This document shows, piece by piece, positions 7,333 through 20,385 of a stretch of DNA of 64,000 nucleotides. The stretch spans positions 7,634 to 71,633 of the forward strand of contig DYHY01000004.1 of the NCBI GenBank assembly GCA_020723935.1. The letters run 5' to 3'. Each line of letters begins with the position of its first letter. Position 1 is the stretch's first letter. Source of the DNA: Candidatus Micrarchaeum sp. (lineage in GTDB: Archaea > SpSt-1190 > DYHY01). The translations under genes and the position numbers were made by a program. The notes below the pieces were generated by a model. It searched no databases, had not been told where the DNA came from, and was given only the letters and a program-made list of their open reading frames with translations.

Positions 7333-8402
7333 GTCGTTCCCCTTCCAAGCGTCTTGCTCTTTTTCTTCTTTTTCTTCTTCTTCTTCTTCTTCTCCCGCTC
7401 TTGCTCCGCGCCCCTGTTGCCGCGGAAACGCAGGACATGGGCCGCCAAAACTATCACGAGCAGGAGGAGGGCGCCCCCTAGCACCTTAGGATAGGGCCCG
7501 GAGGAAGAGGAGAGCGCCCTGCCCTGCACCGAATAGAAGTACTGCTTGAGGTGGAGGAAATCCCAGGTGTTGACGACGGAAGTCCCCCTGAATACGACAA
7601 ACGACAGGCCGATGAGCGCGAGGAACGCGCCCGACACCAGGTTCGTCGTGTGCAGCAGCAGGTCCTTCCCGAACAGGCGGACGCGCACCTCTTTTCCCCT
7701 GATAAGCGGGCTCTTCGCGAGGCCTGTGGAATCGTAGAAGACAGACAGGATGAAGAGCGGGGCGAAGATGCCCAGGGAATACGCGCCCATAAGGAGGCTA
7801 GCGTAGAGGACGTTCCCGAGGAGCGCCGCGACGGAGAGAATCCCGCTCAGTATCGGCCCGACGCAGGCGGTCCAGCCCAGGGCGAAAAGGGTGCCGGAGA
7901 CGAAGACCCCCGCGACGCCGTCGCCGCCGGGAGCCGGGGCGGTTCTCGGCCGGATGAAGGAGGAGAATCCCTTGCCGAGGGCGGTCATGATTCCCATCGC
8001 CATCAGGACGAGCCCCGCCACGAGGACGAGCTCCGGCCTCTGGAGCTTCAGGAGCGATTGCTCGCCGACGAATCCGGCGACCGCGCCGAACGCCATGAAA
8101 ACCACCGCGACCCCTAGCGAGAACGCGAGGGTCATCTTCGTCACTTCCGTTTTGCCTCCCGGCCGGAAGGTGTAAGAGAAGTACGCGGGAAGGAGCGGGA
8201 GGACGCAGGGAGAGAGGAGTGTGAGGGCGCCGGCAAAGAACGCGATGAGGAAGGAGATCTTCGCCTGGAAGTCCCTGGCATAGCCCTGGTTATAGTCCTT
8301 TATCTTCTGGAGGGCCGGCGGGAGAGCCGATGCGTCCGCCGCGAGGGCGGGCGCCAGGAGGACGAGCGCCAGCAGCGCCCGGCCCAGATCCATCCTATCC
8401 AT
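7329..8402 (-). CDS. ccdA: cytochrome c-type biogenesis protein CcdA (DsbD-family) with 100-aa C-terminal extension ending in poly-Lys
   Basis: LSPCVLPLLPAYF and a second conserved Cys in the TM core. Extra TM helices. EKKKKKKKKKKK tail encoded by a (TTC)n run. Confidence 0.75.
   Translation of the reverse strand: MDRMDLGRALLALVLLAPALAADASALPPALQKIKDYNQGYARDFQAKISFLIAFFAGALTLLSPCVLPLLPAYFSYTFRPGGKTEVTKMTLAFSLGVAVVFMAFGAVAGFVGEQSLLKLQRPELVLVAGLVLMAMGIMTALGKGFSSFIRPRTAPAPGGDGVAGVFVSGTLFALGWTACVGPILSGILSVAALLGNVLYASLLMGAYSLGIFAPLFILSVFYDSTGLAKSPLIRGKEVRVRLFGKDLLLHTTNLVSGAFLALIGLSFVVFRGTSVVNTWDFLHLKQYFYSVQGRALSSSSGPYPKVLGGALLLLVIVLAAHVLRFRGNRGAEQEREKKKKKKKKKKKSKTLGRGTT
7358..7393. repeat. (TTC)n microsatellite encoding the poly-Lys tail of CcdA
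   Basis: ctttttcttctttttcttcttcttcttcttcttc on the plus strand. Confidence 0.8.
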
Positions 8403-8406
8403 CCTA

Positions 8407-8991
8407 TCAGTTCACCGCCAAGGTTCCCCTCATCAAGCTGTGCCCGGAGCCGCAGGGGCGGTTGCAGAAGAATGCGAAACGCCCCTGCCTGTCCGCGGTG
8501 AACTCGACGACGACCGGCGCGTCCCCGGGGGAGAAGGACTGCGTCGCAACCCCATAGTCGGGAAGGGTGGGGCCGTGCGTCCCCGACGTGCTTGTTAGAA
8601 CGAGCCTAACGCGGTCTCCCTGGCTCACGGTTGTGGTCGACGAGTTCCAGCCGAAGGAGTATGCCTCGACCTTTATCTCCTTCATGGGCGCCTGGCCCGC
8701 CGTCGAGGAGGTGGGCGAGCTGGAGGATGAAGAGGAGGGGGATGAAGAGGAGAGGGATGAAGAGGAAGGGGATGAAGAGGAGGGGGATGAAGAGCCCTGC
8801 GAGCTTGATGTCGAACTGGATGGACTTCCTGAGCCAGCCGAAGGCATCCCCGCGTCCTGCGCTGGCCCCGTCACGCATCCCGCGACCAGGACCGCCGCCG
8901 CCAGCAGAACGGCCGCCACAACCGCAAAGGAGGCGGCCGTCTCGGGCATAGCCTTCCCGATGTTTCCCCTGAATCCCGATGCGTATCCCAT
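8407..8991 (-). CDS. cupredoxin-like (CuA-type Cys/His/Met motif) lipoprotein with Ser-rich linker
   Basis: Lipobox LVAGC after a hydrophobic signal. About 45 aa of SSSP-type linker. C-terminal FFCNRPCGSGHSLMRG resembles the CuA CxxxCGxxHxxM motif. Confidence 0.6.
   Translation of the reverse strand: MGYASGFRGNIGKAMPETAASFAVVAAVLLAAAVLVAGCVTGPAQDAGMPSAGSGSPSSSTSSSQGSSSPSSSSPSSSSLSSSSPSSSSSSSPTSSTAGQAPMKEIKVEAYSFGWNSSTTTVSQGDRVRLVLTSTSGTHGPTLPDYGVATQSFSPGDAPVVVEFTADRQGRFAFFCNRPCGSGHSLMRGTLAVN
8690..8810. repeat. 12-nt tandem coding repeats (ggatgaagagga-like) encoding the Ser-rich linker
   Basis: Five near-identical units. Antisense reading gives the EDEEEGDEEE artefact ORF 8567..9220. Confidence 0.7.
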
Positions 8992-9014
8992 TTCCGTCCT
9001 TTCATCCTCCCGTT

Positions 9015-10000
9015 CTTATCTCTTTCCCGCCGTCCCGTTCGGAACCACGACCGAGCCGTCGGACAGGTTCCTATACGGCAGGCTGAATATCTCGACCGTC
9101 TGGAAGACGTACGTCCCGTCCCGCTCGACCGTCCCAACGTACTTCCAAGAGCCGTTCAGCGCCGGATACGCATCCACGTCGCCGTTCAGGATCGCCGTAG
9201 GGACGAGGAGTATCCCGTAGCGCGAGAGAAGCTCCTTCCCCCTCAGCCGAGAATATGTCGACGGATTTCTCGGCTTGCACGGCCGCCCCGACCTTGGCCA
9301 AGACCTTCTTGTGTATGGGCCCGGGATCGTAGCAGGACGCGCACGAGGCGTCGCGGACTATCGTGAGGTTGACGTACCCGACGGCCCGCCCGAGGGAAGC
9401 GTCGTAGTAAGGCGGAAGGGGTTTCTCGGCCACGTAGGCGGAACCGTCGGCTGAGAGGGGGGCCGTGCTGAAGATTCCGGGAAGGATGCCCTCGTACGCC
9501 GAAAGCTCCCCTGAGAGGACGACAGCGGGGAATTTCGAGAGGGAATACTCGAGCGCGAGCGAGCGTCCTTTGGGGGAAGACAGGTTCACCTGGCTGATGC
9601 TTCCCAAGCCCACCCCAGCTAGGCGCAGCTGGCTTAGGAACGGAAGGGAGCCCGCGCAGGACAGGGCATAGATTACGGAAACGTTCACTATTCCTGCGAC
9701 CGACCCGCTAGAGACGTCGAAGTAGAAGGGGTCTGGAGAGGAAAACACGATTGCGTCGCCAGAAAGCCTTCCGCCGGGAACCGCTTGCAGGGATTTCGCC
9801 TTCCCTATCTCGCCCGTCACGATCACCGCCGGAAGACGCGTTATCCCGTACCTGGAGATTAGGGGAGCAACCAGGGAGGAGCCGAAATCCAGGTCGTCTT
9901 GCGATGCCACCCGCACTCCGGCGGACTTGCGTATGGAATCTGCCAGGGCCGCGGGCGATGAGCACCTGCCGCAGTCGGCCTTGACTACTATGGTAGTCAT
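9015..10000 (-). CDS. protein with three tandem thioredoxin/glutaredoxin-like repeats (CGRC, degenerate SCAGS, CASC); C-terminal repeat in shifted frame
   Basis: MTTIVVKADCGRC...RYGITRLPAVIVTGE; YSLSKFPAVVLSGE; then SRYGILLVPTAILNGD only after a shift at a GGGGG run near 9240. Track ORF 9071..10000 ends in Arg-rich junk. Confidence 0.5.
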
Positions 10001-10269
10001 GGAGACGTCCGCCGGGAGGGGCGCTCCTGCTCGGTTCGGACGGCCGAGCCCAGGATTCTGGAGAGCGAGGAGGACGAGAGGAGGTCAACGGACGCGAACA
10101 TGACGAGGGCCGCCGCGAGGGCGAGTACGAGGCCTTCCCTCCTAAAAACCCCGGGAGGCTCCGGCCCGCGCGATTCCGCTGCCTGCCTACTGCTCCGCCT
10201 CGTCTCCATCGCCATCTCGCAAGTATTGTGCCCCGGGGGGCGCGCTCTCTTGATTCCTGAATAGAACAA
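9997..10269 (-). CDS. small single-TM protein, translationally coupled to the thioredoxin-fold gene
   Basis: Its stop overlaps the downstream ATG (ATGA). One hydrophobic helix LVLALAAALVMFASV. Confidence 0.3.
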   Translation of the reverse strand: MFYSGIKRARPPGHNTCEMAMETRRSSRQAAESRGPEPPGVFRREGLVLALAAALVMFASVDLLSSSSLSRILGSAVRTEQERPSRRTSP

Positions 10270-10319
10270 AGGAAGGGTCTTTTTTTGGGAAACGGAAATA
10301 ATCCCTCTGACGCCCTAAA

Positions 10320-10556
10320 CTAACAGCCACCCACCTGCTGGGGAAGACTCGCAAGGCTCTTGGGAACCGAGCCTCCCGACGCCGCGGCGATGCCTCCGCT
10401 GTTGCTGCCTGCGGCCTCGGACGCTGCGAAGAGCTCCCCGAGGGAAACCTTCCCGTCCGAGACCTTCGTCCTAAGCTCGTTCAGCTGGAACGTCTGCGCC
10501 GCGGAGACTACCACGAACACCGCGAGAATCGCCGCGAGTATCTTCGTCTGGTCCAT
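10320..10556 (-). CDS. small membrane-anchored protein ending in the SLPQQVGGC motif
   Basis: N-terminal TM ILAAILAVFVVVSAAQTF. C-terminus ...SLASLPQQVGGC followed by a stop. Confidence 0.45.
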   Translation of the reverse strand: MDQTKILAAILAVFVVVSAAQTFQLNELRTKVSDGKVSLGELFAASEAAGSNSGGIAAASGGSVPKSLASLPQQVGGC

Positions 10557-10603
10557 CTTTTTTCGACACCTCCTTGTCTTTCTTCTTTCCTGATCTGATT
10601 AGC

Positions 10604-11416
10604 TTAACACCCGCCGACCTGGCTCGGGAGGCTCGCGGCGCCCGGCCCCGCGTCCCCGCCCGCCACATTGAGACCCAAGGTAACCATGTCCTTGGGGAAG
10701 AACAGGGTCTTCCACTTCATCGCCTCGTAGAGTATCTGCCCGTCGGAGTAGTTCGGCCTGTTCGCCGAGAGCCAGAGGGCCACGGAGAGCATCGCCGGGT
10801 TGTGCTGGCAGCCGCAGAGCGAGTTGCCGTTGGAGTCAGCTCCGGTCGGCCCTATCCCGCAACAGTACTCGCAGGAAATGCCGACCGGCTTGGTAGCGAA
10901 GCCTATGAACCTCTGGAACGCCTCAGGGTTGTTCTTCTTTACGTCGTCCTTGAGGCTCGGATAGGATTTCGCGAGGAGGTCGAGCGACTTTATCGGGTCG
11001 TCGAAGCTCACTCCCATCTCGGTGCCGTACTCGGGGGTGCCCGTCGGGAACATCGCCGCCATCGCCCCATCGGCCGTCTTCATCTTGTCGAGGGGGAAGA
11101 CCGCGGCGATCGTGTCGGCCGTGGATTTTATCTTCGAGACGTCAACCTTGGAGAGGTCAGCTCCGTCGGAGCTCCCGGCCTGGAGGACGCTCGAGAGAAA
11201 CCCTATCGAGGGCCCTTTGGCCCCGCCGCTGCCGTAGAGGGCGCCGGATATCGCGAATATCTGGGCCTGGTTGACTGCGAGGAGTATCGCCGCTATGACA
11301 ATGAGCGCTATCACCGGGGCGCCCAGCCTCATCGCGCCGGATTCCCTCTCTGCCGCCCCCTTCTCGGGAGCTGCCTTGGCCGCAGTAGCTTGCGTAGCAT
11401 GATGCCTTTCCGCCAT
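10604..11416 (-). CDS. membrane-anchored Cys-rich protein ending in SLPSQVGGC (paralog of 10320..10556)
   Basis: TM VIALIVIAAILLAVNQAQIF. Middle domain with CEYCCGIGPTG...CGCQHNP. C-terminus AASLPSQVGGC. Start possibly the internal Met at 11332. Confidence 0.5.
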   Translation of the reverse strand: MAERHHATQATAAKAAPEKGAAERESGAMRLGAPVIALIVIAAILLAVNQAQIFAISGALYGSGGAKGPSIGFLSSVLQAGSSDGADLSKVDVSKIKSTADTIAAVFPLDKMKTADGAMAAMFPTGTPEYGTEMGVSFDDPIKSLDLLAKSYPSLKDDVKKNNPEAFQRFIGFATKPVGISCEYCCGIGPTGADSNGNSLCGCQHNPAMLSVALWLSANRPNYSDGQILYEAMKWKTLFFPKDMVTLGLNVAGGDAGPGAASLPSQVGGC

Positions 11417-11466
11417 TTTCGGTCCGGTCGAGAACGCTGCCCCTATATTTAAAAGGGGGGAAATAA

Positions 11467-11486
11467 CCGTGAAAAAACAGTGAAAG
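11467..11486 (+). promoter_or_regulatory. 20-bp motif CCGTGAAAAAACAGTGAAAG (direct GTGAAA half-sites) overlapping the regulator start codon; TATATTTAAAA box upstream
   Basis: Reverse-complement copy at 13252..13272. AT-rich box at about 11441-11452 in a divergent intergenic region. Confidence 0.45.
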
Positions 11487-13228
11487 AAGGGGAAAACCAG
11501 CCTGCCGCGCAGCAGCGGGGCGTTTTCGCGAGCCAGAGGTCGGTCCTGGCGCTCTCCTTGGCGCTCCTCCTGATGGGCGCGGTGGTCCTGGTGAACTTCC
11601 TGTCCTTCTCCAAGGTCGGGGGGGTTATGGAAAGCCAGCTCCTGGACCGCCAGCAGATAGCGGCCGACTACGCGGCGTCAAGGATCGAGGAGCACATCCA
11701 TCAGGTCAGTATGGAGGTGACGACGCTTTCCAGCTTCCCCGCGCTGAAGAACCTCGACCTGAGCCAGTGCAGCGGGGACGTGAAAATAATACACCCCAGC
11801 CTCGAGGGCAAGACGAAGGTACTCCTGCGGGTTGACGCTCTCGGGAACATCGTGGAATGCTCGTCCCCGAATTACAAGGGATACGTTGGCTTGAACGTCA
11901 GGAACAAGGACTATTTCAAAGTCCCGGCCGAGACGGGGGCTTCCTATGTCTCGGGCCTCGCGAGGGACGGGAGCGACTACAATGTCTTCGTCTCCGCCCC
12001 CATCTTCGAGGGGGGGTCTGGAGGAACATACCCCAATAACGGCGAGTTCGGGGGAATACTCCTAAGCATCGTGGGCCTCCAGGACCTCTACGACCTCTAC
12101 ATACACCCAATAGGGCCGATGGGCAGGGACCTCTTCGTCCTCGCGAGCGTGGATGCGGGCGACACCGTGATGAAAAGCCAGGGCGCCCCTGACCTGGGCG
12201 GCCTCGGCAAGGTGCACGAGATAAGGGATTATGCCGGGACGGGCAGGACCATAGCCGTCTCCTCCGACCTCTCCCTCGGGAGCGAGAAGTTTCGCCTCTT
12301 CATCCTCACACCCCTCGCCAACGCAGACAAGGAGATACGGGACGTCAGAGCGGGCTACCTGTTCTCCCTGTTCTTGGCCGTTTCGGCCATCCTGGGCGCC
12401 CTCCTTCTCGCGGCTTCGGCGTACCTGTCGCGCGAGAGGATAAGGACGCAGCTCGCGCGGACCACAGAGACGCTCGAGAGCCTCGGGATCACGGTCGAGA
12501 CGGAACGGAGCGGATATTCTCCTACCGACATCGTCCTCGAGCCCCACAAGGTCTACCTCCTTAAGGAGGACGGGGAGACGAGCCCCCACGACCTCTTCAT
12601 TGGGATGCTCTCACATGGCTTCGCGGGCCTCGGCATAGTGAGGGACGACCCCAGGGAGCTGCGGAAGAAGTACAGCCTCAAGAAGACTTCGTTCATATGG
12701 CTCTCGGAGGCGGGCGGGGGCCGGGGCGTCCCGGCCGAGACCAAGATCGAGACGCTCCTCGGCCTCGCCAGGGAGTTTGTGGAGAGGAGCGAGAAGAGCG
12801 TCATATTGATAGACCGGCTCGACTACCTGATATTCGAGAACGGCTTCGAGCGGGTCCTCAAGGCGGTGTACGCCCTCCGCGACCTCGTCGCGAGGAGGAA
12901 GTGCGTCGTGATAATCTCGGCCAACCCCGCGGTCATACCCAAGGAGCAGATGGAGGCGTTCAGCGCGGAGACGATCGACCTCTTCGGCGGCAGGGCCGGG
13001 GCCGGCCTCTCCAAGGACGAGGCCGAGCTGCTCTCGTTCGTGAACGAGGGGAACGTCGCGAGCAGGCTCGTCTCCTACACGGACGTGACGGAGCAGCTTG
13101 GGATAACGAAGCCCACCGCCCGAGCCAAGATCCGGCGCCTGCAGGACGCGGGCTTCCTCTCCGTCGAGAAGGTCGGGCGGGTGAAGGCCGTGCGGATAAC
13201 GTCCCTGGGCAGGAAAATCATTTCCTGA
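11480..13228 (+). CDS. membrane-bound one-component regulator: N-terminal TM, extracytoplasmic sensor domain, second TM, DUF835-like (P-loop-less RecA/KaiC-like) domain, C-terminal winged HTH
   Basis: TM helices at about 22-42 and 295-318. Cytoplasmic part has IWLSE...VILIDRLDYLIFENGFE...CVVIISANPAVI. C-terminus ...QLGITKPTARAKIRRLQDAGFLSVEKVGR. GTG start. Confidence 0.65.
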   Translation: MKEGENQPAAQQRGVFASQRSVLALSLALLLMGAVVLVNFLSFSKVGGVMESQLLDRQQIAADYAASRIEEHIHQVSMEVTTLSSFPALKNLDLSQCSGDVKIIHPSLEGKTKVLLRVDALGNIVECSSPNYKGYVGLNVRNKDYFKVPAETGASYVSGLARDGSDYNVFVSAPIFEGGSGGTYPNNGEFGGILLSIVGLQDLYDLYIHPIGPMGRDLFVLASVDAGDTVMKSQGAPDLGGLGKVHEIRDYAGTGRTIAVSSDLSLGSEKFRLFILTPLANADKEIRDVRAGYLFSLFLAVSAILGALLLAASAYLSRERIRTQLARTTETLESLGITVETERSGYSPTDIVLEPHKVYLLKEDGETSPHDLFIGMLSHGFAGLGIVRDDPRELRKKYSLKKTSFIWLSEAGGGRGVPAETKIETLLGLAREFVERSEKSVILIDRLDYLIFENGFERVLKAVYALRDLVARRKCVVIISANPAVIPKEQMEAFSAETIDLFGGRAGAGLSKDEAELLSFVNEGNVASRLVSYTDVTEQLGITKPTARAKIRRLQDAGFLSVEKVGRVKAVRITSLGRKIIS

Positions 13229-13251
13229 CATTCTCGGCGGTTTGCCGGCGG

Positions 13252-13272
13252 CTTTTCACTGTTTTTTCACGG
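13252..13272 (-). promoter_or_regulatory. inverted copy of the 20-bp GTGAAA motif, 45 nt upstream of the 13316 operon
   Basis: cttttcactgttttttcacgg is the reverse complement of ccgtgaaaaaacagtgaaaag. TTTAATAT box follows at about 13296. Confidence 0.45.
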
Positions 13273-13315
13273 TTGTTTCGCCTTGCTTTAATATGGTGCT
13301 TTCTCCGTTCCCCGC

Positions 13316-13915
13316 ATGGAAAACGAAAGCAAGGCCGCAATCCCGGTGCTCGCCGTTGCCGCGCTCGCGGTATTATTGGCGCTCTTCGCGCTCCCCCTCG
13401 CGGGGGCGTATGCGTACGAGGGGAACTTCACCAAGGAGGCTCTCGCGATAATAGCGGCGAATGTGTCGTGCGGCTCGATAACCGAAGCACAGCTCGAGAC
13501 CCTGGGCGAATACTACAAGGAGCTCATGCATCCGGGCGCGGCCCACGAGGCTATGGACCAGATGATGGGTGGCGAGGGGTCTGAGTCCCTGCGGCAGGCG
13601 CACGTCGGAATGGGCCGGGCGTTCCACTGCGGCGCTTCGGGAAGCTTCAGGGGGATGATGGGCCTCGGCTACAGGATGGGCATGATGGGCGGTCCTTATT
13701 ACGGGGGATACACCGGCTACGGCGGGGGGATGATGGGCGCGTCCTATGCTACTCCTTGGTATCTGGTGCTCGTCAACGTCCTCTACTTGCTCCTCCTCCT
13801 GGGTGCGGTGATTTTGGTCTTCATCTGGGTCGTGCGGTCCTGGAGGGCGCTCAACAGCGGCGCCCGGCAGGAAGCCGGGAGCGGCCCGGTAAGGAAGCCT
13901 GCGAGGCGGAAATAA
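13316..13915 (+). CDS. secreted, C-terminally anchored Met/Gly-rich protein (Met-motif Cu-binding type)
   Basis: Signal peptide. MMGGEG, GMMGLGYRMGMMGGPYYGGYTGYGGGMMG. C-terminal TM helix. Confidence 0.5.
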   Translation: MENESKAAIPVLAVAALAVLLALFALPLAGAYAYEGNFTKEALAIIAANVSCGSITEAQLETLGEYYKELMHPGAAHEAMDQMMGGEGSESLRQAHVGMGRAFHCGASGSFRGMMGLGYRMGMMGGPYYGGYTGYGGGMMGASYATPWYLVLVNVLYLLLLLGAVILVFIWVVRSWRALNSGARQEAGSGPVRKPARRK

Positions 13916-13916
13916 G

Positions 13917-14582
13917 TTGGGCGGAACGGACGGAAAGGCGGCGGACGCCGTCTTCTACGCAATACTCATCGTTGCGGCTGCCGGGGCGACGGGAATAGCC
14001 ATCCTGTCGGCATTACAGCCTCCCTCCCCGGCAGCCCCAACTTCATTCGGCCCGCGCGCAACGAAGCTCACCTCATTCGACATATCGCTCGCGCAGGGGA
14101 TGATGGACAGAAACGGCGACGGGAAATGCGATTCCATGGGATCGTCGGTCGAGGGCGAGATCCTCGCGAACAGGCTCCAGTGCATGGGCGACCCCAACGC
14201 GACGATAGGGCAGCTCGGCTCCTCGCACCACCACGCGGACTTCAAGGTCTACGTAAACGGGCTGCCGACGGATTTCAACGACCCGAAATACTTCGTCAGG
14301 AGCTCGTTCGCCCATGTGGAGCCCGACGAGGTTTTGGGGGCGACCGGGACCGTCTTGCACCTCCACGCGACGGGAGTCCCGTTATGGGTCTTCTTTAAGA
14401 GTGTGGGGATGGACCTGGACGGGGCGAAGATCCTCGTGAACGGCGCGGAGAGTGGTCTGCTAGGGGACTATGCGCCGTCAAACGGCGACAGGATACTGGT
14501 GTCTTACGGAAACGCTACGCAAGGGGAACTGAAGAGAGAAATGGACAGCGTCACTGACTACGCGGCGATGGGGAGGGTCTGA
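13917..14582 (+). CDS. secreted protein with His motifs (SSHHHADFKVYVNG, HLHATG)
   Basis: N-terminal TM/signal. No recognisable family. Lies inside the copper gene set. Confidence 0.45.
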   Translation: MGGTDGKAADAVFYAILIVAAAGATGIAILSALQPPSPAAPTSFGPRATKLTSFDISLAQGMMDRNGDGKCDSMGSSVEGEILANRLQCMGDPNATIGQLGSSHHHADFKVYVNGLPTDFNDPKYFVRSSFAHVEPDEVLGATGTVLHLHATGVPLWVFFKSVGMDLDGAKILVNGAESGLLGDYAPSNGDRILVSYGNATQGELKREMDSVTDYAAMGRV

Positions 14583-14584
14583 AA

Positions 14585-15526
14585 ATGACTTCCACTGGCG
14601 CCTACATTTTCTCGTACCTGCTCTATATGGCGGTGCTCTCGGGCGCCGCCCTCTACGTCTGGAAGTACAGGAAGGGCCTCGACGAGATGTACGGCATGAT
14701 GATGGGAATGACGTTTGGCACGGTCGCAGGTCTTGCGACCGGCCTCTTCTACGCCCTCCCGAGCGGCGACTTTGTCGGCGGGGCGATTGTCGGGACCGTG
14801 GCCGGGCTCCTCTTCGGGATACTGCTAGGGGTGATCGGCGGGCCCCTCGGGATAATGGAGGGCGTTATGGGCGCCTTCATGGGGGGCTTCATGGGCTCGA
14901 TGACGGGGCAGATGGCGCGCCCGTTCCCGCTGGGCGCGTTCTCTCCGGTCTTCGCGGCGATATTCCTCGCGATGATGGCGGGGATCACCTATGCCGCGGA
15001 AACGGGCAAGACCTGCTGCGCTCCCGCGGGGGGTAAGCCGGAGGCGCCCGAGAGGCCGAAGCTGGTGAACCCGTCGGGCAAGTTCGTCGCCACGTGGACA
15101 GTCGTCGCCGCAATCCTCCTCTTCGCGAGCTTCGCGATAGACCTCTCGCCGTACTCCGCACAGGGCGCCCAGTCGACTGGCACGCAGAGCACGGCTCTTC
15201 CGGCGTCGCTTCGGGCGCTCACGGAGGAGCAGCAGACCCAGGCAGTCCAAAAGGACGGCTACCAGGAAGCGTCATTTAGGGTGACCGCGGGGAGGTACAC
15301 GCCTAACGTCATAGTCGTCAAGGCTGGGACGCCGCTTAGGCTGAACATCGCAGCAGACAGGAACGCCGGATGCGGGACTGACATCGTCTTCCCGGATCTC
15401 AGGGTGCGCTCGCTCATCCCCCCGGGGACGTCCAAGACGGTCGAGGTGGGGACCCCGTCCGCGGGGAACCATTCGTTCTCCTGCTCCATGGGCATGTTCC
15501 GCGGAAAAATCGTCGCGGTCGGTTAG
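14585..15526 (+). CDS. Met-rich polytopic membrane protein with C-terminal cupredoxin-like domain
   Basis: MMMGMTFG...GVMGAFMGGFMGSMTGQM TM region. C-terminal VKAGTPLRLNI...CGTDIVFPDL...HSFSCSMGMFRGKIVAV. Confidence 0.55.
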   Translation: MTSTGAYIFSYLLYMAVLSGAALYVWKYRKGLDEMYGMMMGMTFGTVAGLATGLFYALPSGDFVGGAIVGTVAGLLFGILLGVIGGPLGIMEGVMGAFMGGFMGSMTGQMARPFPLGAFSPVFAAIFLAMMAGITYAAETGKTCCAPAGGKPEAPERPKLVNPSGKFVATWTVVAAILLFASFAIDLSPYSAQGAQSTGTQSTALPASLRALTEEQQTQAVQKDGYQEASFRVTAGRYTPNVIVVKAGTPLRLNIAADRNAGCGTDIVFPDLRVRSLIPPGTSKTVEVGTPSAGNHSFSCSMGMFRGKIVAVG

Positions 15527-15556
15527 TCAGTTAAAAAGAGGTAAAGGGGGAGAAGA

Positions 15557-18196
15557 GTGAAAATGGCGATGGAAAAGGATCCTATATGCGGCATGAATGT
15601 CGACCCGCGGACCGCGAGGTTCAAGGGCGAGAAGAGTGGGAGGACATACTACTTCTGCAGCAAGTCCTGCATGGACGCTTTCCTGGGGGGCGGCGAGGAG
15701 GGCGTGGGGGAAGAGGGGCGCCATCGCGGCGACGGGGAACCGGAATCCGGGAAGGAAGAAGGACTCCCGCAAAAAGGCCCGCCGAAGAGGATGTTCAGGA
15801 TAAAGGGCATGCACTGCGCTAGCTGCGCGATAACGATAGAGAACAACCTCAAGAAGCTCCCAGACACCAGGGCGAGCGTCAACTACGCCTCCGAGAAGGC
15901 CTATGTCGAGGGGCCCGCGACCGACGCGCGGGTCATGGCGCGCGTGAAGGAGGCTGGCTACGAGGCGATCCCGGCTTCCGACAGGCCGGGGGAGATGGTC
16001 CTTGAGATATCCGGGATGGATTCCATGCACTGCGTCGGGATCGTCGAGAGCTCGCTCAAGCGCGTGCACGGGGTCTCCGAAGTCAAGGTCAACCTCGCCA
16101 CGGGCAAGGCGAGGGTCGCGTTCGACCCGGCAAGGGCCCATGCAAGCGACCTCGTCAAGGCTGTGAAAGCCGTCGGCTACGGCGCGATGGCGTCTAGCGA
16201 GAAGCGCGACGAGCACGCCGAGGAGCAGCGGGCGGAGATACGCTCCTACCTCTCCCGGATAGCGGTATCTTTCTTCTTCGCAATCCCTCTCCTCTACCTC
16301 TCGATGGGGATGCTCGTGGGCCTCCCGGTGCCGGAGTTCAAACCGTTCGAGCTGGGGCTCCTGGAGCTGGCGCTCGCTACGCCTGTGATAGTCGCGGGCC
16401 GGGGCTTCTACACGCGCGGCTTCAAGTCGCTCGCGAACCTCACGCCCAACATGGATTCTCTCGTCGCCATAGGGACGGGGGCTGCATACGTCTACAGCGT
16501 CTACGGCGTCGTCTCAGCGTACTACGGCGCGTCGCCGGAATACTATTTCGAGGTATCCGCGCTCCTGATAGCTTTCATACTCCTCGGGAAATACCTGGAA
16601 TCGGCCGCAAAGGGCAGGACGTCGGAAGCGATAAAGAAGCTAATCGGCCGGCAGGCCAAGACGGCGACCGTCGTCCATCACGGAGTCGAGACCGAGATCC
16701 CAATAGAGGAAGTGGCGATCGGCGACATCGTCATCGTCAAGCCCGGCCAGAAGATACCTGTGGACGGGACCGTCACCGAAGGGAGGTCCACCGTCGACGA
16801 GAGCATGATAACGGGCGAGAGCGTCCCCGTCGGGAAGGGCCCGGGGGACGCCGTGATAGGTGCGACGATGAATAAGACCGGCGCCTTCAGGTTCAAGGCA
16901 GAGAAGATAGGCGCCGACACGATGCTCGCGCAGATAGTGCGGATGGTTGAGGAGGCTCAGGGATCCAAGGCGCCGATACAGGCGCTCGCCGACAGGGTCT
17001 CGGCCTATTTCGTCCCGGCGGTCGTCGGAATCGCCCTCGTATCTTTCCTCGCGTGGCTCTTCCTCGCGGGCAAGCCGTTCCCGTTCGCCCTCACGATATT
17101 CATATCCGTCCTGATAATCGCCTGTCCCTGCGCCCTGGGCCTCGCGACGCCCACGGCCGTGATGATGGGGACGGAGAAGGGGGCCGAGAACGGGATACTC
17201 ATCAAGACGGCCGAGGCCCTGCAGATGGCCGGGAGCGTCGGAACGGTCGTCTTCGACAAGACCGGGACTCTCACAAAGGGCGAGCCTTCCGTGCCGGACG
17301 TCGCAACGGTCGCAGGCGGCGAGGAGAACGACGCCCTCGACTACGCGGCGGCCATAGAGAAGAACTCCGAGCATCCCCTGGGCGAAGCGATAGTGAGGTT
17401 CGCCGCCGAGAAGGGCATAAGGCCGGAGGCCGTGAACGAGTTCAGCTCGATCACGGGGAAGGGCATCAAGGCGTTCTACAGGAACAAGCTAGTGCACCTG
17501 GGCAACAGGGCGCTCATGGATTCGGAGGGGATCCCCTACCGCGCGTACGAGGACAAGACGTCCGGGCTCGAGGGCGAGGGGAAGACAGTCATGTTCCTCG
17601 CGGTCGACAGGAAGGTGATCTCGCTCATCGCGGTCGCGGACACCCTCAAGGAGCATTCGAAGGAGGCCGTCGCCGAGCTCGGGAGGCTCGGGATAGAGAC
17701 GGCCATGATAACGGGCGACAACGAGCGGACGGCCAAGGCGATAGCCTCGCAGGTCGGGATAAAGACCGTCCTCGCGCAGGTCCTTCCCGGCGAGAAGGCC
17801 GAGAAGGTGAAGAGCCTCCAGGAGGGGGGGAAGCGCAAGGTCGCGATGGTCGGGGACGGGATAAACGACGCGCCCGCGCTCACCCAGGCAGACGTGGGGA
17901 TAGCGATAGGCTCAGGGACCGACGTCGCGATCGAGTCAGGGGGGATAGTCCTCGTCAAGGACGACCTGCGCGACGTCGTGAAGGCGATACGCCTGAGCAA
18001 GTACACGATGGGGAAGATCAGGCAGAACCTCTTCTGGGCGTTCTTCTACAACCTGATCGGGATTCCGGTGGCCGCGGGCGCGCTCTTCCCGTTCACGGGC
18101 GGGCTGCTCAACCCCGTGGTAGCCGGCGCCGCCATGGCTTTCAGCAGCGTGAGCGTTGTCACGAACACGCTGACTATGAAGGGGTTCAAGTTGTAG
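15557..18196 (+). CDS. copA: copper-translocating P1B-type ATPase with N-terminal TRASH/YHS domain and two HMA domains
   Basis: DPICGMNV...[12 protein letters not shown]; two GMxCxxC HMA motifs; [10 protein letters not shown]; DKTGTLT; [10 protein letters not shown]. Confidence 0.9.
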
Positions 18197-18216
18197 TAAG
18201 GGCCGCCCGCATCGGG

Positions 18217-18849
18217 CTAGCCCCGTTTTTTCTTCTTCTTGGCGGGAGATCTGCTCTGCTTCCCCTTCCGCCCGATGAACCTCGTCGAATACGCGACGGT
18301 CGCCGCGAGGGAGACTGCGATAGGTATCACGACGATCGGCATCGCGAAGGCGGGCGGGATGATCGCCGCTATCGGCGGGAAAAGCGCTGAGAAATAGAGC
18401 CCAAGGGCGCCGGCCTTCTGCGTCCCCGCCCACGCGTCCTCGTTTCCCTTTATCCAGGGGAAGCGGAAGCCGAGGGCCGGGTTTTCCGGCGCGGATTGGA
18501 CGCACCAGCCCAGGTATGCGAGGGCTGCCGAGAAGAGGAGGAGGAAAGCCAGGGGCGTCCTCTCGTTCCCCGCGAGGATCGCAATCACCTGGTCGTTGGC
18601 TATTATCACGAGGAGGAGGAACATCAGCTCCAAGTTCCTTAGCGAGGAGACAACCCCTTCGGGAAGGAGCTCCTTCCTTTTCCTGCCCTTGAGCCGGAAG
18701 AGGAGGAACACCGCGATCGCCGCGGCCGGGGCGGCGAAGAGCAGGGGGCTTGCGAGGCCGGCTGCGAAGCGGAGGCGGAAATAGATGGAGGATGCGAGCG
18801 GGAAGAGCGCGAGGAAGGCGGAGAGGAGAAGGTACGCGAAGGCGGCCAT
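18217..18849 (-). CDS. SdpI/YhfL-family membrane protein
   Basis: GFRFPWIKGNEDAWAGTQK matches the family motif. Multiple TM helices. Lys-rich C-terminus. Confidence 0.45.
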   Translation of the reverse strand: MAAFAYLLLSAFLALFPLASSIYFRLRFAAGLASPLLFAAPAAAIAVFLLFRLKGRKRKELLPEGVVSSLRNLELMFLLLVIIANDQVIAILAGNERTPLAFLLLFSAALAYLGWCVQSAPENPALGFRFPWIKGNEDAWAGTQKAGALGLYFSALFPPIAAIIPPAFAMPIVVIPIAVSLAATVAYSTRFIGRKGKQSRSPAKKKKKRG

Positions 18850-19161
18850 CTATTCCCCCCTTGCGCCCTTCTTCGTCTTCTTCTTCGCCGCCTTGGGGAA
18901 GAACCCCGGAAGCGCCGCGTACGCGAGGACCGAGAAGGCTATCACGGCGAGGGCGGCGAATGCGGGCGTTGAGACGGGCGCCTCGGAGAGGAGGAGCTCA
19001 AGGCCCCCGGTGGGGACCCTTGGCGGGCCGGGCTTCTCGCTTTGCGTCAGGAGGAATATGAAGATGAAGGCGAACGCCGCTATCAGGAGGACGAATATCA
19101 GGAGGAACAGCTGCTTTGTCTTGGACATTCTCCTGTCTCGCCTCCACCCCAAGCGCGTCAC
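18850..19161 (-). CDS. small two-TM membrane protein
   Basis: Hydrophobic segments LFLLIFVLLIAAFAFIFIFLL and FAALAVIAFSVLAYAAL. Abuts the SdpI-like gene. Confidence 0.35.
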   Translation of the reverse strand: MTRLGWRRDRRMSKTKQLFLLIFVLLIAAFAFIFIFLLTQSEKPGPPRVPTGGLELLLSEAPVSTPAFAALAVIAFSVLAYAALPGFFPKAAKKKTKKGARGE

Positions 19162-20199: not shown

Positions 20200-20215
20200 C
20201 GGCGGGCGCGCTATC

Positions 20216-20323
20216 GGCCGGGCCGCGGCGGGGTCTGGAGGGCGCCGAACGAAGAGAGGGGCCCGGAACGGCCGGGCCGCGGCGGGGTCTGGAGGGCGCC
20301 GAACGAAGAGAGGGGCCCGGAAC
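20216..20323. repeat. perfect tandem duplication (2 x 54 bp) that includes the 3' terminal 10 nt of tRNA-His
   Basis: ggccgggccgcggcggggtctggagggcgccgaacgaagagaggggcccggaac at 20216-20269 and again at 20270-20323. Confidence 0.9.
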
Positions 20324-20385
20324 GGGAATCGAACCCGTGTTTGGGGATCCACAGTCCCCCAGTCTGCCACTAACTTATCCAGGCC
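20314..20385 (-). tRNA. tRNA-His (anticodon GUG) with extra 5' G-1
   Basis: Hand-folded cloverleaf. Acceptor GCCUGGA/UCCGGGC with one G-U. Anticodon stem GGGGA/UCCCC, loop CUGUGGA. T-arm ACGGG-UUCGAUU-CCCGU. Discriminator C73 pairs with G-1. TTTATAAAAG box about 30 nt upstream. No encoded CCA. Confidence 0.85.

Follow-up and report, generated by a model that had tools for sequence, protein, structure and literature searches.

We analysed a stretch of 64,000 nt from the genome of Candidatus Micrarchaeum sp. (assembly GCA_020723935.1, contig DYHY01000004.1), referred to below as the window, in which the gene for a putative membrane-anchored regulator is flanked by two inverted copies of an A/T-rich sequence. 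Each copy appears to be a composite module that consists of a TATA-like box and three half-sites, G(T/G)GAAA, arranged as direct repeats at 11 bp, and the same module is found next to the genes of homologous regulators. Through these modules, the encoded protein, a putative sensor that binds DNA, most likely controls copper-handling genes to the left and right of the regulator gene.

The inverted repeat around the regulator gene

The regulator gene and the elements that flank it are as follows (bit scores refer to the module profile described in the next section):

11444..11454, minus strand: left A/T (TATA-like) box, TATATTTAAAA, which reads TTTAAATA on the minus strand
11458..11485, plus strand: left operator (predicted), three direct half-sites in 11-bp phase, 51.2 bits
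11480..13228, plus strand: regulator gene, 582 amino acids (aa), with a transmembrane (TM) helix, an extracellular dCache-like domain, a second TM helix, DUF835 (iKaiC) and a predicted C-terminal winged helix-turn-helix (wHTH)
13254..13281, minus strand: right operator (predicted), three half-sites, 50.4 bits
13286..13294, plus strand: right A/T box, CTTTAATAT, 4 nt from half-site h3, its first T 29 nt upstream of ATG 13316

The 19-mer CCGTGAAAAAACAGTGAAA occurs exactly twice in the window when up to three mismatches are allowed (0.01 occurrences expected; none of 100 dinucleotide-preserving shuffles of the window gave two copies). The copies lie at 11467–11485 and 13254–13272 in inverted orientation, which confirms the initial annotation of a GTGAAA-N5-GTGAAA motif inverted around the regulator gene. 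That annotation also reported a reverse-complement match over 20 of 21 nt. With CCGTGAAAAAACAGTGAAAG at 11467–11486 on the plus strand and its reverse complement at 13252/13254–13272, the arms match perfectly over 19 nt, and 20 of 21 is reached only with a 1-nt gap. Nor is a 20-bp motif the whole unit: a repeat finder returned an inverted repeat of 41 nt with 83% identity (11445–11485 and 13254–13294), each arm of which takes in an A/T box, so that the repeat is a composite of the box and three half-sites. Because the window has a G+C content of ∼62%, the two 41-nt A/T-rich copies are conspicuous. An archaeal (d)CMP kinase equivalog places the DNA among the archaea.

At up to one mismatch, GTGAAA-N5-GTGAAA has four matches in the window against 0.07 expected, all of them within the two copies, and a third, weaker half-site continues the 11-bp phase in each. 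On the left, the half-sites are h3 (GGGAAA, 11458–11463), h2 (GTGAAA, 11469–11474) and h1 (GTGAAA, 11480–11485), with a possible fourth one (GGGAAA, 11490–11495) 10 nt beyond h1. On the right, they run on the minus strand as h1 (13254–13259), h2 (13265–13270) and h3 (GCGAAA, 13276–13281). The right copy starts 25 nt past the regulator stop codon and faces ATG 13316, in keeping with its annotated position at the promoter of the Met-rich/CopA operon, just past the regulator stop; the distance to that ATG is 43 nt rather than the 45 nt given. The spacing of 29 nt between the right box and the ATG fits a leaderless or near-leaderless mRNA, if the box is what it resembles.

On the plus strand, the right operator contains a T6 run (13262–13267) 34 nt past the regulator stop codon, and T6 runs are seen at the same place in the homologues. 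Such a run could conceivably also serve the regulator gene as an oligo-T terminator of the archaeal type.

The module in homologous loci and the genes it faces

Homologous loci were retrieved through the regulator protein and one genome per species was scanned, which yielded 22 loci, almost all of them labelled as Woesearchaeota or other DPANN metagenome-assembled genomes, with 26–54% G+C; about ±5 kb was examined per locus, or 199.6 kb in total (individual loci are designated by L numbers). The pattern GKGAAA-N5-GKGAAA gave plus-strand sites just upstream of or at the regulator start, minus-strand sites past the regulator stop and a few extra perfect sites 1–4 kb downstream of the regulator, likewise on the minus strand. 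There were 34 perfect dimers, compared with 0.25 expected from dinucleotide shuffles, and 30 of these were intergenic, the intergenic share of the sequence being 11%. Three of the four ‘coding’ dimers are located at the 5′ ends of regulators for which the gene caller took an upstream start; those in L006 and L011 are start-codon sites and the one in L012 is an upstream module. The N5 spacer was found in 34 cases and any other spacing from 0 to 22 in at most two, whereas inverted or everted pairs of half-sites were essentially absent and there were no palindromic pairs. The unit is thus a direct repeat with an 11-bp period, as expected from the annotated direct half-sites one helical turn apart.

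When sites with an A/T box nearby were aligned as modules, 43 modules were obtained from 25 loci, the window included, with the consensus aacc.taTaTatAAA.aag.agaAA.AaTA-GtGAAA-AAATA-GgGAAA. The best-conserved positions are those outside the A-tracts (TA-GKG), and the start of the box is separated from the strong dimer by 21–25 nt (mode 23). The module has been kept although the regulators are only 27–48% identical and the G+C content of the genomes ranges from 26 to 62%. The possibility that homologous loci might lack the motif, raised in the initial annotation, is thus not borne out, and what is conserved in them is not a bare 20-mer but a composite in which a TATA-like box and three half-sites keep a fixed register. 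A position weight matrix (PWM) built from the 41 modules of other loci, with the window left out, scored the two copies in the window at 51.2 and 50.4 bits and the next best position at 0.9. A long purine-rich, (GAA)n-like low-complexity stretch at 7342–7394 on the minus strand gives a weak false match to the module profile.

On the motif strand, the box is always 5′ of the half-sites, and the nearest gene past the box runs away from them. Eight of eight positions of the archaeal TATA consensus, TTTAWATA, are matched by 29 of the 43 boxes when read toward the proposed target and by 10 when read the opposite way; the outward reading is the better one in 27 modules and the poorer one in 6, and in 10 the two readings tie. 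Target start codons lie ∼26 nt or more past the box, and several at 26–30 nt, as expected for leaderless mRNAs. The modules therefore appear, by their sequence, to fire outward, away from the half-sites. In the window, the left box matches TTTAWATA at 8/8 positions toward the divergent gene, whose ATG is 37 nt away, and at 6/8 toward the regulator. Judging from homology, geometry and box polarity, the left copy would be primarily the upstream module of the divergent operon that starts at 11416 on the minus strand, a target overlooked in the initial annotation. Because both modules point away from the regulator gene between them, they are read as an inverted repeat that flanks it.

The module is not a generic promoter feature. 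The 22 loci contain 90 promoter-bearing intergenic regions, 28 of which adjoin the regulator gene. A site is present in 25 of these 28 and in 6 of the 62 others, and 25 of the site-less regions carry an ordinary A/T box. Four of the six non-adjacent sites are perfect: two face genes for Met/Cys-rich membrane proteins akin to the product of the window gene at 14585–15526, one faces a gene that precedes one for a CxxxC membrane protein, and one faces a methyltransferase gene. A regulator-independent scan of metagenome contigs with TAGKGAAAAAATAGKGAAA returned at least 120 loci. Among the matches listed, most are unrelated DNA, namely 11-bp tandem TAGTGAAAAAA repeats in bacterial contigs or satellite-like arrays, and only L069, L086 and L138 have a box at the right distance and are true modules. 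The regulator gene is adjacent in all three, and L086 and L138 duplicate L010 and L021, respectively, at the module level. The concern that the motif might occur at many unrelated sites is thus justified for the bare 19-mer, which is met in other organisms; only the composite module is diagnostic across the biosphere.

These unrelated repeats are of two kinds. The bare 19-mer TAGTGAAAAAATAGTGAAA in L034 (6440–6480), and similarly in L023, L030, L113, L118 and many others, belongs to a different 11-bp tandem repeat, aatgaaaaa-tagtgaaaaaa-tagtgaaattt-tagtgaaaaaa, of bacterial, often gut, metagenome contigs. In L034, it lies directly past a gene whose product has a tyrosine-recombinase-like C-terminus (recognized by eye, with no profile) and before a 473-aa gene; the repeat there is probably part of an integrative element and bears no relation to the archaeal module. 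The second kind, found in L041 (17 matches), L057, L102, L116 and L135, comprises satellite-like arrays built of TAGGGAAATAA-type 11-nt units, which are likewise unrelated to the module; several of these metagenome contigs come from project Ga0126342.

The predicted targets of the two modules in the window are the following:

13316..18196, plus strand: downstream target operon, four genes
13316–13915, plus strand: Met/Gly-rich membrane protein, first gene of the downstream operon
13917–14582, plus strand: unknown protein, downstream operon
14585–15526, plus strand: Met-rich membrane protein with a cupredoxin-like domain, downstream operon
15557–18196, plus strand: CopA-type P1B ATPase (YHS, two HMA domains), probably translated from ATG 15563 or 15569
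8407..11416, minus strand: divergent target operon, Cys/His-rich membrane protein first
10604–11416, minus strand: Cys/His-rich membrane protein of the CEYCCGIGP...CGCQHNP...VGGC family, first gene of the divergent operon
10320–10556, minus strand: small VGGC-tail protein, divergent operon
9071–10000, minus strand: thioredoxin-like protein, divergent operon
8407–8991, minus strand: possible further gene of the divergent operon, with a weak COX2/cupredoxin match

The product of the first divergent gene is 54% identical to its counterpart in L006 and is better conserved than the regulator. Members of its family combine a His-rich N-terminus, one TM helix, the CEYCCGIGP...CGCQHNP motifs and an LPGMVGGC C-terminus, and a small 75-aa protein with the same LPxMVGGC tail is encoded next in nearly every locus. 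Elsewhere, the genes directly faced by modules encode a CopA/HMA protein (L001), a DUF302 protein (L006), a DsbA-like thioredoxin (L011), small ‘KKDPICGM...CCGH’ proteins (L005, L008 and L009), CxxxC membrane proteins (L013, L020 and L021), Met/Cys-rich membrane proteins akin to that encoded at 14585–15526 in the window (L014 and L017) and a methyltransferase (L019). About half of the target proteins have no Pfam family. This gene content points to a regulon for metal homeostasis, the metal most likely being copper or another thiophilic one.

Several of these proteins deserve a separate mention. The two LPxMVGGC-tail proteins (QVGGC in the window), one of ∼250–300 aa and the other a single-TM protein of ∼75 aa, look otherwise unrelated and have no Pfam family; the pair is also seen in L001, L003, L006, L007, L009–L013, L015–L018, L020 and L022, and the shared Met/Cys tail could be a metal-binding or a processing/anchoring signal. 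Small proteins of 56–66 aa with the pattern M(F/G)..FK(K/R)KDPICGM...C..C...CC(G)H (L005 at 6835, L008 at 5484 and L009 at 3596) are often encoded by the first gene behind the module, and a similar DPICGM protein is encoded in L003 just past the regulator stop; they resemble stand-alone YHS/TRASH-type metal binders and have no Pfam match at E ≤ 0.01. In L012 (6991–7848) and L013 (6832–8645), the MVGGC operon is downstream of the regulator on the same strand, the regulator being inverted relative to its targets, and both outward modules are kept despite the flip. This arrangement is consistent with a past, rare recombination between inverted modules, and we regard it as an evolutionary footprint rather than a switch.

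Architecture of the regulator and its relation to known systems

The regulator gene begins with GTG 11480, which is the first start codon of the open reading frame and the start of an identical 582-aa database protein (P0001). DUF835 (PF05763) covers residues 371–494 (E = 1.1e-25, 90.4 bits against a gathering cut-off of 33.1), and a sequence search of the PDB matched the last 65 residues to TubR (4aso, E = 4e-5). An AlphaFold2 model based on 42 homologues (mean predicted local distance difference test score, pLDDT, of 78) comprises a TM helix, an α/β domain (dCache), another TM helix, a second α/β domain (DUF835) and the wHTH. Helices 9–44 and 279–328 flank the extracellular α/β domain, and the C-terminus is modelled as three helices and a β hairpin (H512–526, H533–540, H544–556, E560–565 and E568–573). 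Foldseek related the dCache domain to the sensor domains of PctA, Mlp37, DctB and KinD (E = 1e-8 to 1e-6), and the extracellular part, as modelled, has the double Cache fold of a dCache-type sensor, held between two TM helices. PF02743 is precomputed on most homologues and was not matched in the window regulator itself at E ≤ 0.01; a full-length Foldseek search was dominated by the dCache domain and uninformative on DUF835 or the wHTH.

Pfam profiles detected no receiver domain, Trans_reg_C (PF00486), Lrp-type helix-turn-helix (HTH) or TRASH in the regulator. Its architecture, TM-dCache-TM-DUF835-wHTH, without a receiver or Trans_reg_C, rules out an OmpR/PhoB-family response regulator, and an OmpR-type analogy is functional only. 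It is not an archaeal CopR either, as the Lrp/AsnC HTH and TRASH are missing and the operator has no palindromic pairs, and a ToxR-like identity is ruled out by the reversed topology and different domains.

The regulator has 41 full-length or near-full-length relatives with 37–48% identity. The sites recur beside homologous regulator genes, and the link drawn in the initial annotation between the motif and a protein with a C-terminal wHTH was well founded. The recognition helix, ITKPTTRxKI, is invariant in the family, the truncated P0036 (which ends ahead of the helix) aside, except that the window protein carries A for T at one position. The helix and the wing (GRFKSLKITSAGRR) are among the best-conserved parts of the regulator, which fits the near-invariant half-site. 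The dCache-DUF835-wHTH gene is the sole gene found at every locus. In a profile-free exhaustive search, the full dCache architecture proved rare (26 representatives at E ≤ 1e-30), whereas DUF835+wHTH (residues ∼353–580, window positions 12536–13219) is the C-terminal portion shared by ∼1,000 cluster representatives (E ≤ 1e-10), which range from 225 to 2,500 aa and differ widely in their N-terminal parts. In the dCache domain, Cys97 (∼11768–11770 in the window) is invariant and Cys127 (∼11858–11860) nearly invariant among the 42 homologues; these residues might form a disulfide or bind metal outside the cell.

The arrangement has parallels in several regulators, of which it is a member of none: by function, the closest are archaeal CopR, ArnR and ToxR, and by sequence the wHTH is closest to TubR. 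Members of the PhoB/OmpR family also use a wHTH that binds head to tail to 11-bp direct repeats (the pho box), at a site that abuts and partly replaces an upstream core-promoter element, and they are commonly autoregulated; however, they depend on a receiver domain together with a separate kinase and adopt the Trans_reg_C fold, and the window protein has neither receiver nor Trans_reg_C. CopR of Pyrococcus furiosus binds directly upstream of the B recognition element (BRE) and, in vitro, activates copA and represses copR from one divergent region (PMC7830388). Like the window protein, CopR (P. furiosus/Thermococcales, Sulfolobus) is a copper-responsive archaeal regulator encoded beside copA, with a motif upstream of the BRE and opposite action on two promoters, all of which would apply here as a prediction. 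However, CopR is a soluble octamer of the Lrp/AsnC type with a cytoplasmic TRASH metal site and a semi-palindromic motif, TTNNCAWWWTGNNAA, whereas the window protein combines a dCache membrane sensor with DUF835 and a C-terminal wHTH, and its predicted site consists of three direct repeats in 11-bp phase.

ToxR is a membrane-bound wHTH protein that recognizes TNAAA-N5-TNAAA direct repeats (PMC8517210). It shares with the window system, as do CadC and TcpP, a one-component, membrane-anchored design, an extracytoplasmic sensing domain and A-rich direct repeats, spaced by about one helical turn, upstream of the core promoter. ToxR, a bacterial protein, differs in having an N-terminal, cytoplasmic Trans_reg_C wHTH, a single TM helix, a periplasmic C-terminal domain, sigma-70 RNA polymerase as its partner and a 10-bp period; in the window, the wHTH is C-terminal, after two TM helices and DUF835, the period is 11 bp and the predicted promoter is of the archaeal type, used by the TATA-binding protein (TBP) and transcription factor B (TFB). 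Pfam profiles detected no homology of the regulator to ToxR, and the two are alike in function only. The archaeal activator ArnR is membrane-bound and has two boxes at −43 to −84, upstream of the BRE/TATA (PMC6396743). ArnR and ArnR1 of Sulfolobus acidocaldarius are the sole experimentally studied membrane-bound one-component archaeal activators; in contrast to the window protein, they have an N-terminal HTH, HAMP, C-terminal TM helices and cytoplasmic-side sensing, bind inverted repeats (TCGAC-N5-GTCGA), and belong to another phylum with an archaellum regulon.

TubR represses its own operon and binds cooperatively to direct iterons that are arrayed ahead of the tubR gene (PMC6009700). Among solved structures, it is the one most similar in sequence to the C-terminal wHTH, but the similarity covers ∼65 residues, and TubR is a small, soluble plasmid or phage protein of type III partition that recruits TubZ and has no sensor or membrane part. 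As for DUF835, it has been catalogued as ‘iKaiC’, an inactivated KaiC, among the output domains of archaeal response regulators, and the survey entries include REC-DUF835 and REC-PAS-PAS-DUF835 proteins of Methanomicrobia and Thermoplasmata, with no DNA target assigned in the table entry (PMC5847659). In comparison with those entries, DUF835 is here fused to a wHTH and linked, by prediction, to a specific operator.

Proposed mechanism and alternative readings

We consider it highly probable, from the data on the 43 modules, that the module is an operator. The overall reading that we favour, and regard as probable though by no means secure, combines outward activation, self-repression, a copper signal and membrane-tethered binding by the dCache-DUF835-wHTH protein, a previously undescribed one-component regulator. 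Each module would then be ordered as target gene, 26–40+ nt, TATA-like box, ∼4 nt, the weak h3 and then the strong h2 and h1, the right module driving the Met-rich/cupredoxin/CopA operon and the left one the conserved divergent operon of Cys/His-rich exported proteins. Owing to their 11-bp spacing, the half-sites all fall on one face of the helix; the regulator would bind them head to tail as an oligomer that approaches this face from the membrane side. Since the half-sites lie immediately ahead of the box, at the BRE position, with invariant spacing and polarity, we infer a stereospecific contact with TBP/TFB, through which metal (most likely copper) would switch on the outward promoters. Such occupancy would also shut down transcription of the regulator gene, whose presumptive leaderless start site is covered by the operator in the window. 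Activation is favoured because polarity and register are invariant, the strongest half-sites are those farthest from the box, and there is no purine-rich BRE in the outward direction. CopR, which has been studied most closely among archaeal copper regulators, behaves likewise in vitro (PMC7830388).

Autoregulation has a different footing in the window and in its relatives. A second box (TTTATAAA-like and facing the regulator) is located 1–2 nt past h1 in 18 of the 23 regulator-proximal modules, compared with 2 of the 20 others. As this second box abuts h1 (GGGAAAA), h1 takes the BRE position of the regulator's own promoter in most relatives, and its occupancy should hinder TFB at that promoter. 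No such second box is present in the window, L012, L017 or L022. In the window, the regulator start GTG 11480 is the first triplet of left h1, and the only box starts 34 nt away from it. The annotated overlap between motif and start codon is therefore real; the best available reading is a leaderless regulator transcript from the shared box, with the operator across the start site. Autoregulation in the window is thus plausible but on weaker ground than the outward regulation, and of the ‘autoregulated wHTH operator’ in the initial annotation, the operator is by far the best reading of the site, whereas the window lacks the second, regulator-facing box through which autoregulation would work in most homologues.

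Two further candidate sites were set aside. An operator-like string, GGGGAAAAAATAGTGAAA, is found at the start codons of many regulator homologues and is equally readable as a Shine–Dalgarno (SD) sequence (GGGG or AGGTGA) followed by GTG-AAA; the window has a comparable string, GGGGGAGAAGAGTGAAAATG, in front of copA. The other candidate is the half-site that had been noted immediately before copA:

15557..15563, plus strand: GTGAAAA at the copA start; −2.5 bits with the PWM, not part of the system

There are six GTGAAAA heptamers in the window against 2.74 expected, and three of them are inside the modules, which leaves three elsewhere, the chance level. The heptamer at copA has neither a box nor a phased partner and is situated in a 30-nt intercistronic gap beside an SD-like GGGGGAG. 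We reject it as an operator; it looks like translation-start context.

Several points weigh against the reading that we favour. The TATA and BRE assignments are inferred from resemblance to the archaeal consensus and from distances to start codons, and the Pfam HTH matches at the regulator C-terminus (DUF6293_C, HTH_20, HTH_24 and Fe_dep_repress) are all below their cut-offs. The loci were found through the regulator gene, which makes the co-occurrence of gene and module partly a matter of ascertainment, and the search covered ∼±5 kb per locus rather than whole genomes. The regulator-independent scan gave at least three true modules, two of which duplicate L010 and L021, and the bare 19-mer is present in many unrelated bacterial contigs. 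The window has no second box as a candidate promoter of the regulator gene, and its shared box points the other way; the start-codon ‘site’ of the homologues is too ambiguous, with SD plus GTG-AAA as a possible reading, for any support to be drawn from it. Finally, h3 over the BRE position would equally suit a repressor, and another factor could read the site, ArsR-type genes being present in some loci.

The last two points lead to the more serious alternatives. With the same operator and regulator, the protein could be a pure repressor, which would occupy h1–h3 in the absence of metal, h3 occluding the BRE/TFB site of the outward promoters, and which metal would release, with de-repression of both operons and the regulator gene. 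Many archaeal and bacterial metal sensors, such as those of the ArsR/SmtB and CsoR families, are de-repressors. In the modules, h3 ends ∼4 nt from the box, where TFB contacts DNA, the boxes are near-consensus and may need no activator, and in the window the operator also covers the regulator start. However, a steric block needs neither the invariant polarity nor the 21–25-nt register seen in 43 modules, h2 and h1 are the strongest half-sites despite being farthest from the box, a layout typical of upstream activators, and CopR, the nearest characterized archaeal case, activates from just upstream of the BRE (PMC7830388); repression alone is accordingly a distinctly less likely, if serious, alternative. 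It is unlikely that the module is not read by the neighbouring protein at all, being instead a lineage-typical strong promoter with phased A-tracts and curvature upstream of TATA, or a site read by some other factor, for instance a repressor of the ArsR type. The half-sites do hold A5–6 tracts that are phased at 11 bp and bend DNA, G(G/T)GAAAA resembles a purine-rich BRE, h1 together with TTTATAAA makes a canonical-looking BRE/TATA pair, and ArsR-family genes are found in L003 and L010. Yet 56 of the 62 non-adjacent promoter regions have no site, though 25 have an A/T box, conservation peaks at the non-A-tract TA-GKG positions, and the motif persists at 62% G+C. No ArsR gene lies near the window modules, whereas the dCache-DUF835-wHTH gene alone is common to all loci and its recognition helix is unchanged but for the one substitution in the window.

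The inverted arrangement itself suggests two other explanations, both of which we regard as very improbable. The arms could be the 5′ end and the 3′ untranslated region of the regulator mRNA, pairing over 19–41 nt as a panhandle that hides the start codon: they are perfectly complementary over 19 nt, the left one holds the GTG start, and the right one begins 25 nt past the stop codon. However, identical modules precede genes 1–4 kb away from any regulator (L007 at 6640, L008 at 5397, L011 at 7364, L014 at 6097, L017 at 6810 and L019 at 1926), and several regulators precede a convergent gene and have no 3′ arm. With the only box at 11444–11454, most of the left arm would be untranscribed, and the T6 run in the right arm would probably terminate archaeal transcription; Rfam covariance models gave no matches at E ≤ 1 in 9000–19000. 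Alternatively, the 1.8-kb segment between the 41-nt inverted repeats could be a mobile element or an invertible DNA switch that carries the regulator gene, and the flipped regulator in L012 and L013 is what recombination between the arms would give. Against this, no transposase or recombinase domain turned up in the open reading frames that were profiled with Pfam from 5.6 to 21.9 kb, target-site duplications are absent (the flanks differ, gaaataa/ccgtg versus cacgg/ttgtttc), the promoter boxes held by the arms look functional and keep a constant spacing to the start codons, and the same module occurs singly before other genes, the flip being explained by a rare evolutionary inversion.

Beyond outward activation by the dCache-DUF835-wHTH protein, a broader proposal may be put forward tentatively, as a possibility more doubtful than that reading. 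DUF835 (iKaiC) plus wHTH may define an uncharacterized class of archaeal one-component transcription factors that bind 11-bp-phased direct repeats at a fixed register to TATA. In the membrane-anchored subfamily, a dCache domain with conserved cysteines would sense metal outside the cell, and one oligomer on a single operator would set the direction of transcription, drawing the pre-initiation complex to the outward metal operon and at the same time blocking the promoter of the regulator, with both directions sharing one TATA box in the window. A narrow search of the literature found no described cis-regulatory element for DPANN archaea, and in the literature searched, including the entries of the domain survey, DUF835 figures only as a catalogued domain of unknown role (PMC5847659). 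If the pairing of regulator and operator is correct, the regulator would represent a second family of membrane-bound archaeal transcription factors, after ArnR, and a third design for archaeal copper control, alongside the CopR type with Lrp and TRASH. It would also hint at how the much larger DUF835-wHTH family recognizes DNA, to which the operator may be the first clue. The ∼30-bp operator with three phased half-sites and a cytoplasmic fragment of ∼240 residues make a testable protein–DNA pair, and the predicted regulon of copper/thiophilic-metal genes includes two uncharacterized conserved families, those with the LPxMVGGC tail. With its fixed register between box and operator, the module offers a clean system for studying the positioning of TBP/TFB by archaeal activators, and it is also suited to asking how one bound factor acts oppositely on divergent promoters.

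Outside the region discussed here, the window contains a perfect 54-nt tandem duplication (2.1 copies, 100% identity) at 20215–20325, which overlaps the 3′ end of a tRNA-His gene (20312–20384, minus strand).

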